Virus record (IMG/VR): IMGVR_UViG_3300042448_001551
Span: 1-62,735 of that record
Reading direction: 5' to 3' (one strand)
DNA: 62,735 bases
Source: a virus
Taxonomy: Duplodnaviria > Caudoviricetes
Positions 24,678-39,672 of the stretch are shown here, piece after piece. Position 1 is the stretch's first letter. Every line of letters begins with the position of its first letter. Below the pieces are notes generated by a model that was given only the letters and a program-made list of their open reading frames with translations, was not told where the DNA came from and searched no databases. A program made the translations under genes and the position numbers.

Positions 24678-24707
24678 ATTATAAGATTTTAATGTTTAAA
24701 AAATAGC

Positions 24708-24779
24708 GGTGTATGTTGGGACTCGAACCCAAATTTCATCCTCCCGTAGATGCGTACTAGCCTTTATACTACAAACACC
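24708..24779 (-). tRNA. Degenerate tRNA (His-like G-1:C73 acceptor, 6-nt anticodon loop)
   Basis: G-GTGTTTG-TA-GTAT AAAGGCTA GTAC-G-CATCT ACGGGA GGATG-AAAT-TTGGG TTCGAGT CCCAA-CATACAC-C. The cloverleaf is intact, but the anticodon loop is 6 nt and no CCA is encoded. Confidence 0.7.
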
Positions 24780-30736: not shown

Positions 30737-30840
30737 TAGTCAGGACAGGAATGACCCTGTTTAGGTGTTTTAACATTAAACTAGTATTACATTGGAATTG
30801 ACCAATATCTCCTAATGACTTTTTGTTCGTCACCTGACTA
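30737..30840 (-). ncRNA. tRNA-like element A (TAGTCAGG...CCTGACTA)
   Basis: 8-bp acceptor-like stem, TGAC/GTCA D-like arm, expanded TTAGG/CCTAA middle arm and ACAGG GTCATT CCTGT T-like arm. Confidence 0.55.
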
Positions 30841-30846
30841 TAAAAT

Positions 30847-30925
30847 GAGGGTGAGAAACCCTCTGTGTTGTGGGACTACCTATCCCATAGTTCATTACAG
30901 ATTCCTTTCTCAAGGGAACAACACA
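30847..30925 (-). ncRNA. Three-way-junction RNA motif, copy A
   Basis: TGTGTTGT/ACAACACA closing stem, TCCCTT GAGA AAGGA hairpin, TGGGA/TCCCA hairpin, then a GAGGGT/ACCCTC hairpin. Confidence 0.6.
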
Positions 30926-30931
30926 CATTTT

Positions 30932-31216
30932 TTAACTATCAAATACCACCATCATTCTTTCAATCCACGGATGAGCTTCAAAGAATGCTGTAACCCATTT
31001 GACTTGTTCTTCATTATATTCTTCAGGACGGTCTATTAAATCTTGTTTAACCCAATATACTTTGTTCCCATCGTAAGATACAATATTATTATCTCTAACA
31101 AAATCACAACATTTATTCCAACTCAAACCCATAGATGCATTTTCTGAAATAAATCTAATTAAATAAGCATCATCGACATAATGTATTTGTTCTTTTTCAA
31201 ATAAAACTGGTTTCAT
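30932..31216 (-). CDS. Hypothetical protein
   Basis: 94-aa ORF between the two RNA modules. Confidence 0.65.
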   Translation of the reverse strand: MKPVLFEKEQIHYVDDAYLIRFISENASMGLSWNKCCDFVRDNNIVSYDGNKVYWVKQDLIDRPEEYNEEQVKWVTAFFEAHPWIERMMVVFDS

Positions 31217-31231
31217 ATTATTTAATTTTAG

Positions 31232-31299
31232 TAGTCAGGACAGATTATGATTCTGTAACTTAGCCTATCGACTCTGCTTTACTTTAAGCTACCTGACTA
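31232..31299 (-). ncRNA. tRNA-like element B (TAGTCAGG...CCTGACTA)
   Basis: TAGTCAGG-TA-GCTT AAAGTA AAGC-AG-AGTC GATA GGCT-AAGTT-ACAGA ATCATAA TCTGT-CCTGACTA, with a 4-nt anticodon-position loop. Confidence 0.6.
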
Positions 31300-31410
31300 T
31301 ATTAAGTTGTAAGTAAACCACTTAGGGACTATCATTAATGCTCTTTACCTTCTTAACTTCTTTATCATTAATGAACCCTTTACCGTTCAGTACTATTAGT
31401 ACCAACTTGA

Positions 31411-31498
31411 TGAGGATAGAAATTCCTTCATGCGTTGTAGAGAACGTTATTTATTACTCTCTTATCCTAGTTTATTCCTTTTCAAAGGGAACAACGCA
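31411..31498 (-). ncRNA. Three-way-junction RNA motif, copy B
   Basis: TGCGTTGT/ACAACGCA closing stem, TCCCTTTGAAAAGGA hairpin, AGAGAG/TTCTCT arm, then a TGAAGGA/TCCTCA hairpin. Confidence 0.6.
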
Positions 31499-31657
31499 AT
31501 TTTGCTCCTTATTCTCTTACCCCTTTATATCAGAGCTATCCTGCTTATCTAAGGAATTAACCTATAATACGAGTTTCTCAGGGATACAGGAAATAAAAAC
31601 AACTAATGATTTTTTTACTTTTCAGTATTAACCATTAGTTGTTTAAACTTTTTTTAT

Positions 31658-32691: not shown

Positions 32692-32757
32692 TAAAAAAGC
32701 TGTAACAAGAGGTTTTACTAAGAGACATTGTCCTACTTAGTTACATTGTTACAGCTG
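32692..32757 (-). terminator. Terminator or processing hairpin at the 3' end of the candidate large ncRNA
   Basis: agctgtaaca/tgttacagct 10-bp stem followed by a U-run on the minus strand. Confidence 0.55.
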
Positions 32758-32759
32758 GA

Positions 32760-33700
32760 TTTCTCAATCTTTGATTAATAGAATAAGTAATCAAGGATGA
32801 CCTTATTTCTAAAATGTCCCCTAAACAACAACATAGCTTGATTTAATGTTGTATAGGAAAATAATACAATATGTATTATTCCTTTATCAAAGATTGGGGT
32901 GTGTTCCTCATGCACTCAGTTGTAATATTACTACCGTGGAGATCAACCCACCCAACTCTATAGTTATATCATATTAATATAACTCCTATCCTCGTATTAT
33001 TACAAACTGTCTCATTCTTAGATTGATTAACTTTAATTACAGGCAATATTACCTTCCCCTACATAGCACCCACTCTATTGTGAGATTTATATGCAGATTC
33101 GTTTGTTAATCAGATCTTTTTACATCTTGGGAGCTGATTAAAACCTTACTACATCTAACTATATAGCAAGTTTATACATTCTTTACAGCTGGCATTTAAG
33201 GAGAATAGTTAGTTCTTAGCCAATACTGTGGTGTTGTATTATTAATCAGATGTCCCAAGAAAGAATGAATAGTGCATAAAGGAATAAGTTTTGTTTTAAG
33301 GACTCAAGGGTCGGTCAACCCTTGATTTATATTTTATAAAAATCTCATTGGAACTACACACGACCTGAATGTATAGCTAATGTCTCCACATCACCCCAAT
33401 AAGATCGACTCTATACTAACTTTTAGTATATCATCTGTTATCTGGTCCACCACAAACCAGGGAGAGAAATAGACGTGTGGTTTTTACGTCTACGAAACGG
33501 TTGTACCATTACTGGTCGTTTAACTGTTACCTCTAAGCTTAACCGTAAATTTAGAGATTCAGTGCTTGATTTTATAGTCTGCACTAACTTAGCATTACAT
33601 AGAAAGGAATGTTTATCTATGTTTAATACTCTCACCCTTATATGAGAGAACACTATAGTAGCCCCACAAGCTTGTCACAGTTTATTAATCCGTAAAGAAG
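32760..33700 (-). ncRNA. Candidate large structured non-coding RNA (about 950 nt)
   Basis: No credible ORF in an otherwise gene-dense genome, many local hairpins and several long-range helices (see findings). The strand is inferred from the flanking genes and the terminator. Confidence 0.55.
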
Positions 33701-33713
33701 AAAGAGAGCCTTT

Positions 33714-33872
33714 TTACAGACTCTCTATTTTTTCTGTTGTAGTTATAATAATTTTGCTTACATACATAACATTGCATATAAGCTTATCATCCCCATATAA
33801 CTGCTCATCTTTTATCTCTATTTTTCTGTAAATAGAAGGAATTTCAGCAATTATAACAATAAATACAGACAT
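33714..33872 (-). CDS. Small hypothetical protein (52 aa)
   Basis: Manual translation MSVFIVIIAEIPSIYRKIEIKDEQLYGDDK... Confidence 0.4.
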   Translation of the reverse strand: MSVFIVIIAEIPSIYRKIEIKDEQLYGDDKLICNVMYVSKIIITTTEKIESL

Positions 33873-33908
33873 ATATTAGGTTTTTGGTTATAAAAAGAAA
33901 GAGCCCTG

Positions 33909-38165: not shown

Positions 38166-38998
38166 GTATATTAAGATTCACTGCTCATGATCATAAATAC
38201 ACAAGTATTGATGAACATGAAAAAGAGTGGTTATCTGTAACATCTTTTATTGGACAGTTTAAACAACCGTTTGATGCTGATAAGATTGCAGAGAAATCTT
38301 CTAAAAAAAGAAACTCGAAATGGTATGGAATGACTCCAGAGGATATAAAAACTGCCTGGAAAAATGAAGCACTAAGAGCTACAACACTTGGAACATGGTA
38401 TCACAATTGTCGTGAAAAAGATATTTGTGATTTTCAAGATATGGAAAGACATGGAAAGACAGTACCCGTTTTTACACCAATAGAAGTGGAAGGAATCAAG
38501 TATTCTCCTAATCAAAAGCTTACGGACGGTGTCTACCCAGAACATATGGTTTATTTAAAATCAGCAGGACTTTGTGGGCAATCAGATCTTGTAGAAGTGA
38601 TAGATGGGTTTGTACATATAACAGATTATAAGACAAACAAAGAGATTAAGTTGGAAGGATTTACCAGCTGGGATGGAATAACACAAAAAATGTTACCACC
38701 AGTGTCTCATTTAGACGATTGTAATTTAAACCACTATGCATTACAGTTGAGTCTTTATATGTATATTATATTAAAGCACAATCCTAAATTAAAACCAGGA
38801 GTGCTAACTATTCATCATATAATGTTTGAGGAAGTGGGTAGGGATAAGTTTGACAACCCTATAACAGAGCTTGATAGTAATGGAGATCCTGTAGTTAAAG
38901 ATATTGTACAATATGATCTTCCATATTTAAAATCAGAGATTATTAATCTTTTACATTGGCTAGAGGATAATCGCCACAAAATAAAAGTAAAGCACTAA
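38162..38998 (+). CDS. PD-(D/E)XK nuclease (Cas4/RecB-like)
   Basis: SVTSFI, GT..H, E...., GQSDLV, ITDYKTNK and HYALQLSLY motifs. Confidence 0.85.
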   Translation: MSILRFTAHDHKYTSIDEHEKEWLSVTSFIGQFKQPFDADKIAEKSSKKRNSKWYGMTPEDIKTAWKNEALRATTLGTWYHNCREKDICDFQDMERHGKTVPVFTPIEVEGIKYSPNQKLTDGVYPEHMVYLKSAGLCGQSDLVEVIDGFVHITDYKTNKEIKLEGFTSWDGITQKMLPPVSHLDDCNLNHYALQLSLYMYIILKHNPKLKPGVLTIHHIMFEEVGRDKFDNPITELDSNGDPVVKDIVQYDLPYLKSEIINLLHWLEDNRHKIKVKH

Positions 38999-39672
38999 TG
39001 AAAGTAGTATTTGATCACATTAATGGTTTTGGTAAAGTGAGTGATCAAGATTTTATTTATTCACAACCTTATGGTATTCTTGAAAATGGAGAAAATCCTT
39101 CAGATGCTTTAGATAAAGGATGGATACCGTGGGAAGACTTATGGTATAATATTAGATCTGTAAGAATAAAGTTAAGTGATTATAAACCACATGAAACTAC
39201 AAGAAAAAAAGCTAGACTTATTAATTTTTTGTATAAAGAGTTTGATGATAAACTTATCTATCGTGAACTATATGAGAAGTATTTAAGTCACCGTGGGTTT
39301 TTAAGAACAATTACATGGGAACAACTCTTTACTGGTCATATTGTTGAGTATAGTTACATGGGGAATGTTATTGGGTTTTCATGTGTAGAAAAATATAATG
39401 ATGCTTTAGTAGCAACACAGTTTGTCTGGGATTATGAAGAACCTAGTCTTTCTTTAGGCAAGGTGGCTCAGATGTATGAGTGTGAAATAGCAAAGATTTT
39501 AGAATGTAAATATGTATATATTTTAGGAGGTTATGAACAATGTTGTTTGTATAAGTCAGACTTTTATGGTTTTGAATGGTGGACAGGTTCAGAATGGAGT
39601 AGAGATAAACAATTATATAAAACTCTTTGTGAAAGAGATGATAAAACTACTGTAACATATGATGATATATGA
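38998..39672 (+). CDS. ATE1/Bpt-like aminoacyl-tRNA-protein transferase
   Basis: LDKGW, RSVRI and WDYEEPSLSLGK...E..IAK..ECKYVYILG.Y..CCLYKSDF resemble the ATE C-terminal D....SLG...Y.YLGY..C..M.YK..F pattern. Confidence 0.7.
   Translation: MKVVFDHINGFGKVSDQDFIYSQPYGILENGENPSDALDKGWIPWEDLWYNIRSVRIKLSDYKPHETTRKKARLINFLYKEFDDKLIYRELYEKYLSHRGFLRTITWEQLFTGHIVEYSYMGNVIGFSCVEKYNDALVATQFVWDYEEPSLSLGKVAQMYECEIAKILECKYVYILGGYEQCCLYKSDFYGFEWWTGSEWSRDKQLYKTLCERDDKTTVTYDDI

Follow-up and report, generated by a model that had tools for sequence, protein, structure and literature searches.

The window considered here, that is, the whole stretch of DNA that was analyzed, is the entire IMG/VR virus record IMGVR_UViG_3300042448_001551, which has a length of 62,735 bases and an estimated completeness of 48%. 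It belongs to a tailed phage, with replication genes on the minus strand up to around 24 kb and plus-strand genes for terminase, portal and head proteins from around 41 kb. Near-identical DNA is contained in 20 runs of lake-water metagenomes, belonging to 19 studies, and no such run is on record as RNA. The gap between the replication and head genes is filled on the minus strand by small open reading frames (ORFs) and ORF-poor DNA. Within this gap a small RNA motif occurs twice, each copy being followed by a transfer RNA (tRNA)-like element that is closed by the stem AGUCAGG. We rate the motif as a previously unclassified, phage-specific structured RNA that appears to be of a new kind. On the minus strand the order is motif B, tRNA-like B, a 94-aa ORF, motif A and tRNA-like A; an original prediction for this DNA had listed these parts, and all of them are confirmed. 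The features of the module are as follows.

31505-31595, minus strand: conserved element U, directly 5' of motif copy B; the same block occurs in loci L020 and L100
31411-31498, minus strand: motif copy B, recognized from its sequence and by a covariance model that was not trained on this copy (49.3 bits, E 3e-7)
31300-31405, minus strand: element X, located after motif B and before tRNA-like B, with a closing stem predicted (single-sequence fold only) to join its ends
31232-31299, minus strand: tRNA-like B, 68 nt, fold z -3.41
30932-31216, minus strand: 94-aa ORF, 15 nt after tRNA-like B and 6 nt before motif A
30847-30925, minus strand: motif copy A, recognized from its sequence, its fold and the covariance model (78.2 bits)
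30737-30840, minus strand: tRNA-like A, 104 nt, fold z -3.60

The motif is an RNA of around 80-90 nt that is made up of a closing stem (P1), a hairpin (H2), a third arm (H3), a 3' hairpin (P4) and a loop-loop pseudoknot. The two copies in the window are divided in the following way.

31498-31491 with 31438-31431, minus strand: P1 of copy B
31490-31474, minus strand: hairpin H2 of copy B, whose loop strand 31483-31479 enters the pseudoknot
31462-31439, minus strand: third arm H3 of copy B
31427-31413, minus strand: 3' hairpin P4 of copy B, with its loop at 31423-31417
30925-30918 with 30871-30864, minus strand: P1 of copy A
30917-30901, minus strand: H2 of copy A, with the loop strand GAGAA at 30911-30907
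30886-30872, minus strand: H3 of copy A
30863-30847, minus strand: P4 of copy A, with the loop strand UUCUC at 30857-30853

P1 closes a three-way junction through the pairing of GUGUUGU with ACAACAC over 7-8 bp, and is nearly invariant. A compensatory change between the closing stems of the two copies had been predicted, and it is found as an exchange of U:A for C:G at alignment columns 8:141, where CG occurs in one of 72 rows, that of copy B. The stem of H2 consists of four pairs and a C-A opposition beneath a 7-nt loop, UUGAGAA. In a 77-row alignment the pair at 15:78 changes from CG to UA in two rows, and the C-A opposition at 17:27 is UA in nine rows, CG in five and UG in one; when the family is gathered without fixing H2, the H2 consensus is present in only 34 of 97 distinct copies. 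The third arm ranges from 23 to 105 nt and its sequence is not conserved. In the window the two arms had been described as unrelated in sequence and still paired, as indeed they are, and across the family a helix of at least 4 bp abuts P1 in 60 of 68 distinct sequences, versus 42% of shuffles. This helix is closed by AG with CU in 26 of the 60, with AAG, CAG or GAG often standing just before it. A single A after P1 leads into P4, which has 4-5 bp and a 7-nt loop containing UUCUC, in agreement with the UUUCU-type loop of a 3' hairpin noted earlier for both copies. The P4 stem covaries freely, with GC replaced by AU in 10 rows and by UA in four, and covariation is found at three of its four core pairs. 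P4 does not have the makeup of an intrinsic terminator, the tails of the family being mostly AA followed by mixed letters; the P4 of copy A was flagged by the terminator scan because of the AUUUUAU just after it.

The pseudoknot, which goes beyond the original prediction, is formed by GAGAA of the H2 loop and UUCUC of the P4 loop. Since the two 7-nt loops pair, the molecule is locked into a compact pseudoknot. Double changes are found at three of the five pairs, in UGGAA:UUCCA (L041), UAGAA:UUCUA (L125) and copy B, which has other letters at two of the pairs and lacks the outermost one. In the first alignment, of 72 rows, 88.4% of cells are paired, versus at most 56.4% when the partner columns are slid, and double-sided changes occur at nine pairs, versus 3.2 in shuffles, with none of 500 shuffles reaching the observed value. 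The G-U pairs fit only the strand of the motif. Folding of the single sequences also gives the three-way junction and 3' hairpin, together with both stem-closed tRNA-like elements. For the two motif copies this folding moderately beats shuffles (z -2.26, with 5 of 200 as good, and z -1.65, with 16 of 200), and it is clearer for the tRNA-like elements, where one of 200 shuffles is as good for A and none of 200 for B.

Around 29 of the 72 copies have a different continuation after P1 and make up a long form of the motif, none of which is found in the window. The 5' domain and the loop pairing are those of the short form, but here the UUCUC partner comes after a 7-nt linker, one or two extra conserved helices replace the 3' strand of P4, and there is a conserved 5' extension (examples are L008, L016, L021, L039, L049, L073 and L080, with around 20 further loci). 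The long form precedes tRNA-shaped RNAs or a transfer-messenger RNA (tmRNA); in some loci the next element is a phage tmRNA (L073) or an AGUCAGG element. No Rfam family fits the long form.

The family was sized with a covariance model, R1, which was built from 29 short-form copies with copy B of the window left out. Over the 62.7-kb window R1 finds copies A and B with the scores given above, and the next match reaches 14.8 bits (E 0.92). At the level of sequence comparison these scores are strong evidence against chance for the two motif copies. The word common to both, GTTGTTCCCTT, occurs exactly only there (two exact among 25 matches with up to two mismatches). A scan of IMG/VR with a word for the hairpin gave at least 119 stretches and at least 67 loci with the whole motif, in which the closing stem is the same though it was absent from the search pattern; on these stretches R1 gives at least 72 matches in 67 sources. 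A second scan of IMG/VR, with a word for the 3' part, gave at least 122 stretches and at least 104 model matches in 100 sources. Both scans combined hold at least 138 distinct family sequences, with at least 127 distinct third arms. In the GenBank phages, blastn with one family member returned six weak partial matches, none covering 80%. Pseudoalteromonas phage HM1, which has the sole exact 20-nt match, was set aside as a chance hit, as the match lies in apparent coding sequence, without the closing stem or a nearby tRNA. Among one genome each of 185,579 species, four contigs carry the motif, all of them metagenome-assembled and assigned to unrelated phyla. The motif family thus seems to be confined to uncultured phages. 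Copy numbers in five records are 1, 1, 4, 1 and 2, the four copies of L104 being a few hundred nt apart.

The motif does not match a described RNA. With the 4227 models of Rfam 15, no match at E values up to 10 overlaps either motif core or either tRNA-like element in the window, where only the hatchet ribozyme passes a gathering threshold, at another site. At 14 other motif loci only tRNA and tmRNA pass the Rfam thresholds (E up to 0.1), and nothing fits the motif at seven further loci. The hammerhead core consists of CUGANGA and GAAA around a three-way junction; neither word is present in the junction strands of the aligned family, and no Rfam hammerhead model matches. The Rfam models of the hepatitis delta virus (HDV) type likewise have no match to the motif. 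A mapping onto HDV-like ribozymes was tried and rejected, as the catalytic C (in J4/2, directly ahead of the 3' strand of P2), P1.1 and the short P3 with its conserved L3 are all absent. The letter before UUCUC varies across the family between C, U, G, A and none, and P1 is followed by A and then GAGG. The strands of P1 and of the loop partners are interleaved as in a nested double pseudoknot, but both pseudoknot strands are located in the loops of hairpins, unlike in HDV. The literature searched contained no description of such a motif and no occurrence of its literal sequence words. A catalog of around 8,500 anonymous candidate RNAs from IMG/VR was published in 2023 (PMC10690425), and it may already list the motif without a name; no motif sequence is present in six of its supplementary files, with supplementary files 1, 2 and 4 outside that search. 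It is because there is no Rfam match, because HDV-like and hammerhead features are absent and because the literature searched holds no description that the motif is rated new.

The original prediction had proposed an unnamed structured RNA linked to tRNA-like elements, neither hammerhead nor HDV-like, and had suggested both the comparison with Rfam and a survey of co-occurrence. The proposal holds up in its homologues, its covariation, the lack of an Rfam family that fits and a tRNA/AGUCAGG association that recurs in other phages. The size of the family and the descent of the AGUCAGG elements from a phage family of tRNA-shaped RNAs are further additions to it.

In other phages the motif appears as a member of tRNA gene arrays. 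Within 67 oriented loci, all 44 ARAGORN tRNAs among the matches listed are on the strand of the motif, and in L037, L040, L065, L075 and L079 it fills a slot of a dense tRNA array. Arrays with the motif hold tRNAs, tRNA-shaped RNAs and other stem-closed RNAs close together. A relaxed detector finds a downstream tRNA-shaped element just after P4 in 31 of 43 short-form rows, starting 4-6 nt after P4 in 25, and an upstream one in 12 of the 43, where the gap to the first G is 5 nt in 11 rows and 6 nt in the remaining row. By our reading, around 27 of 38 true short-form copies, copy A included, lie 4-6 nt before a tRNA or tRNA-shaped RNA. Ordinary neighbors in these arrays are spaced by 4-7 nt, like the motif, which therefore behaves as one more member of the array. 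In L009, L022 and L100 the motif is followed by an ORF or other element.

Recurrent conserved noncoding blocks also stand beside the motif, 5' of it in L053, L081, L099, L103 and L104, and between it and the AGUCAGG element in L048, L110 and L093; L030 and L100 have such a block as well. Element U, for which there is no Rfam match, is found in three unrelated records including the window, and precedes the motif in L020 and comes after it in L100. The flanking blocks, at least three further ones, suggest islands that are packed with several unnamed RNA families.

The place of the module is not the same from phage to phage. In phages with a marker protein 64-78% identical, none of 13 loci has the motif within its flanks (up to 10 kb). 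In one of these phages, G008 (127.7 kb), the motif lies around 13 kb from the marker gene; there a tRNA is followed after 5 nt by the motif, after 4 nt more by a tRNA-like element and after around 60 nt more by an AGUCAGG element. With the motif around 13 kb off in G008 and marker flanks that are devoid of it, the module is therefore kept in the lineage but has no fixed place. The tRNA just before the motif in G008 (L266, G008:C1:95600-98600, minus strand, around 1700-1830) has, by eye, an apparent D-loop insert of around 50 nt.

The element that follows the motif in other phages very often starts with AGUCAGG and ends with CCUGACU and an A. Such elements have a U at position 8 and canonical D and T arms, range from 66 to 168 nt and have a middle that differs every time. 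Six pass the Rfam tRNA (RF00005) threshold, with 32.4-46.9 bits, and ARAGORN calls four of 27, only two with a three-letter anticodon, and neither of the two in the window. They are therefore tRNA-shaped RNAs without a normal anticodon arm. That they are ordinary intron-bearing tRNAs was considered and rejected, as ARAGORN run with introns gives inconsistent intron places and anticodons. The two elements in the window are composed as follows.

31298-31292 with 31239-31233, minus strand: acceptor-like stem of tRNA-like B
31256-31240, minus strand: T-like arm of tRNA-like B
30840, minus strand: U at position -1 of tRNA-like A
30839-30833 with 30744-30738, minus strand: acceptor-like stem of tRNA-like A
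30760-30756 with 30749-30745, minus strand: T-like stem of tRNA-like A, with an A in the discriminator place at 30737

As predicted, the two share an identical AGUCAGG stem and have unrelated interiors. The 8-nt stem word TAGTCAGG occurs exactly four times in the window, as two inverted pairs; the other 13 of its 17 listed matches have one mismatch. With one mismatch allowed the word shows no enrichment, as shuffles give 38. In both elements an acceptor stem of 7 bp and a T stem of 5 bp stack on each other and so constitute a minihelix. In tRNA-like A the interior, of around 72 nt, has no D arm. tRNA-like B has a D-like stem of 4 bp and, where a cloverleaf would have an anticodon arm with a 5-bp stem and a 7-nt loop, a stub of 4 bp that ends in a 4-nt loop. 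ARAGORN calls neither element, no Rfam tRNA model matches them (E up to 10), and their T loops are non-canonical. The first 25 nt of tRNA-like B are identical at 23 positions to a real tRNA of related phages. In one metagenome contig (depth 2.7), the T-like stem of tRNA-like A has A:U instead of G:C at two pairs, 30757/30748 and 30756/30749, with both sides changed each time. We read the AGUCAGG elements of the window as probable degenerate members of a tRNA-shaped RNA family of phages, without the anticodon arm and the canonical D and T loops but with the acceptor/T minihelix retained.

The explanation that we prefer, tentatively, is that the motif is a discrete small RNA gene product that may be cut out by host tRNA-processing enzymes and act on a conserved partner. 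The transcript of the array would be cut up by these enzymes; RNase P, cleaving where the tRNA-shaped element begins 4-6 nt beyond the motif, would produce the 3' end of the motif RNA, and trimming of the upstream sequence its 5' end. The compact RNA released in this way could then act in trans. Action on a conserved partner would account for helices that barely vary. An antisense guide that works through the variable parts was considered and rejected, as the window holds no complementarity to them beyond chance (longest 10-13 nt, with a shuffle mode of 12 nt). The acceptor and T stems are the part of a tRNA that RNase P needs. Because the AGUCAGG elements of the window retain an acceptor and a T-like stem, they would mainly be processing handles, and might also set the mRNA ends of the 94-aa ORF. 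The low copy number, the ordinary spacing on both sides, the copies that precede ORFs or other elements and the near-invariant helices all fit an RNA gene whose product would be freed when the array transcript is cut up. Moreover, one to four copies per record, with a single copy in each of the complete records of 270 and 362 kb, fit an RNA gene better than a processing device for each tRNA. The context thus speaks against a per-tRNA form of the maturation role that the original prediction had entertained.

A number of points weigh against an RNA gene of this kind. All family sequences were gathered by exact word patterns, which inflates the apparent invariance, and the second scan left the closing stem free to vary on its 5' side only. 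Double-sided changes in P1 are thin, being found at two of eight pairs in the first alignment (one of them in copy B) and at none of eight in the second. The control of 500 shuffles ignores the relatedness of the sequences. Given the sampling by words and shuffles blind to kinship, the covariation figures are support rather than proof. The copy numbers are lower bounds, as scoring covered 150 of 493 and 150 of 264 candidates from the first look. Around five of the 31 downstream detections look spurious in our judgment, with odd T-loops, and around 11 of the 38 short-form copies have, by our reading, no canonical tRNA-shaped element adjoining downstream. In the window itself, motif B is 111 nt from tRNA-like B rather than 4-6 nt. 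The processing scheme is one that we infer from the spacing and the known properties of RNase P.

The main alternative, though a rather unlikely one, is a self-cleaving ribozyme of a new class. The motif would then cut polycistronic transcripts of tRNA and mRNA at its own boundary or close to it, in the way that theta (HDV-like) and hatchet ribozymes cleave at their 5' termini. The compact pseudoknotted three-way junction with its very conserved core would suit such a role, as would the strand order of P1 5' strand, loop strand, P1 3' strand and loop partner, which resembles the nested double pseudoknot of HDV-like ribozymes; there is no conserved C before the 3' pseudoknot strand, however, no equivalent of P1.1, and a variable arm where HDV-like ribozymes have a short conserved P3. 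The phage-only distribution resembles that of hatchet: the genomes of 185,579 species yield four contigs, all metagenome-assembled, and no GenBank phage has the motif. The ORF-poor region that holds the motif also contains a bona fide hatchet ribozyme, 2 kb off, and a precedent is set by the theta ribozymes next to phage tRNAs (PMC10879173). The first G of the motif does stand at a fixed 5 nt behind the upstream tRNA in 11 of 12 cases, but just 12 of 43 copies come after a tRNA at all. The downstream distance varies between 4 and 6 nt, and the motif could therefore make neither neighboring tRNA end precisely. A single copy in each of the two tRNA-rich complete records is a further point against a ribozyme that matures tRNAs. 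Finally, the closing stem is almost invariant, whereas the helices of known small ribozymes generally covary freely.

A bolder version of the ribozyme proposal, which we consider doubtful, would make the motif the catalytic core of a new small self-cleaving class, the tenth or so, with which lake phages would punctuate the transcripts of islands of RNA genes, and AGUCAGG the mark of an independent new class of "top-half" tRNA-shaped RNAs. These would keep the acceptor stem, elbow and a D arm resembling the leucine type, would have a variable cargo where the anticodon arm normally stands, and might serve, for example, as decoys for host defenses that target tRNAs or as non-decoding carriers.

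Distinctly unlikely is a role as a cis-acting leader, a structure of the nascent transcript rather than an independent product, that aids the downstream RNA, whether by protecting the 5' end, by guiding folding or RNase P cleavage of the unusual tRNA-shaped RNAs, or by letting the polymerase read through the hairpins of the array. Phage put RNAs are known to make RNA polymerase read through. The placing of around 27 of 38 short-form copies 4-6 nt ahead of a tRNA or tRNA-shaped RNA would fit a leader, and the long form too stands before tRNA-shaped RNAs or tmRNA, but an ORF or other elements come after some copies, as in L009, L022 and L100. By our reading of the sequence, copy B comes after a terminator-like hairpin behind the preceding ORF and stands at the head of the RNA/ORF cluster, which would suit a leader. 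The four tandem copies of L104 exceed what one antitermination signal would need. Ordinary tRNAs of the same arrays manage without the motif, and the invariant letters of the motif show no connection with what lies downstream.

The original prediction had also offered a scaffold for the exchange of gene cassettes, for which three short contig joints between the copies give a weak positive sign, a hint at most. Metagenome contigs X9 and X13 join motif A to motif B, omitting 572 or 602 nt, with joints at 30926/31499 and 30871/31474; these may be natural deletion variants or partly aligned copies of other phages. That the repeats are DNA-level recombination scaffolds or mobile-element ends that shuffle cassettes, with the RNA structure incidental, is very improbable: these joints and the differing distance of the module from the shared marker gene (none within the flanks at 13 loci, around 13 kb in G008) speak for it, but there is one contig per joint, with a short side of 25-34 nt at 80% likeness, and such joints often come from other organisms or repeats, no transposase or integrase adjoins, and the compensatory changes, one-strand G-U pairs, loop-loop pairing and strict co-orientation with tRNAs are signs of selection at the RNA level.

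Several neighboring features in the window deserve mention.

38998-39672, plus strand: gene for a 224-aa protein with Pfam ATE_C, the C-terminal domain of arginyl-tRNA-protein transferases (33.2 bits), which is unusual for a phage
33564-33699, minus strand: full-length hatchet ribozyme (74.1 bits, Rfam RF02678) in the ORF-poor stretch 32720-33900
24706-24779, minus strand: the sole ARAGORN tRNA in the window, with an abnormal anticodon loop and a two-letter anticodon call

The hatchet ribozyme, around 2 kb from the motif in the same ORF-poor region, is immediately preceded by a terminator-like hairpin and followed by around 840 nt without a notable ORF or Rfam match. A connection of the ATE_C-type gene to the motif was considered and rejected: the family is found in the close relative G008 but in none of four other motif-bearing records, and there is therefore no link between the two. 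The product of the 94-aa ORF has no match in PHROG, Pfam or NCBIfam.

It is rare for a new natural RNA fold to come to light that has a pseudoknotted and conserved core, and those found in the past have been ribozymes, riboswitches or parts of ribonucleoproteins. The motif described here is abundant, phage-confined and tied to tRNA gene arrays, which are under current study because tRNAs act as both weapons and targets in the conflict between phage and host. As a defined object of 80 nt it is easily synthesized for tests of cleavage, structure and binding, and it leads to a second unexplained class, the tRNA-shaped RNAs without an anticodon arm.

Among known RNAs, theta ribozymes are minimal HDV-like ribozymes that lie next to phage tRNAs and are reported from gut phages (PMC10879173). 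Like them, the motif is small, pseudoknotted and phage-borne and directly adjoins tRNA genes whose strand it shares, and in 12 of 43 copies its first nucleotide, a G, comes within a few nt of the end of a tRNA upstream. The motif differs in being mostly upstream rather than downstream of tRNAs, and the window phage occurs in lake-water metagenomes rather than being reported from the gut. The motif and the hatchet ribozyme (RF02678) are of about the same size, and one hatchet is present in the region; the hatchet model nonetheless has no match to the motif at E values up to 10, and the two have no conserved letters in common in the hatchet alignment. Hatchet ribozymes are known mainly from metagenomic sequence.

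In MALAT1-mascRNA, cleavage by RNase P at a downstream tRNA-like structure forms the 3' end of the upstream RNA, and organelle t-elements or tRNA punctuation are comparable. In our working view the likeness is that a downstream tRNA-shaped element would end the upstream RNA and a compact structure would protect that end; in contrast to the motif, for which such processing would be an extrapolation, these systems are eukaryotic or organellar, and they have no relation to it in sequence or structure. RNAs C and D of phage T4 are stable RNAs within a phage tRNA cluster, and ROOL and GOLLD, which are large ornate RNAs, adjoin tRNAs in phages. The motif has no Rfam match to these RNAs, is far smaller than ROOL or GOLLD and has a fold of its own, but all are phage-borne, non-coding and found in or beside tRNA gene clusters. 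Finally, the AGUCAGG elements differ from tRNA in the stubs or inserts that take the place of the anticodon arm, and resemble it in the 7-bp acceptor stem, U8, the 5-bp T stem and the A in the discriminator place.

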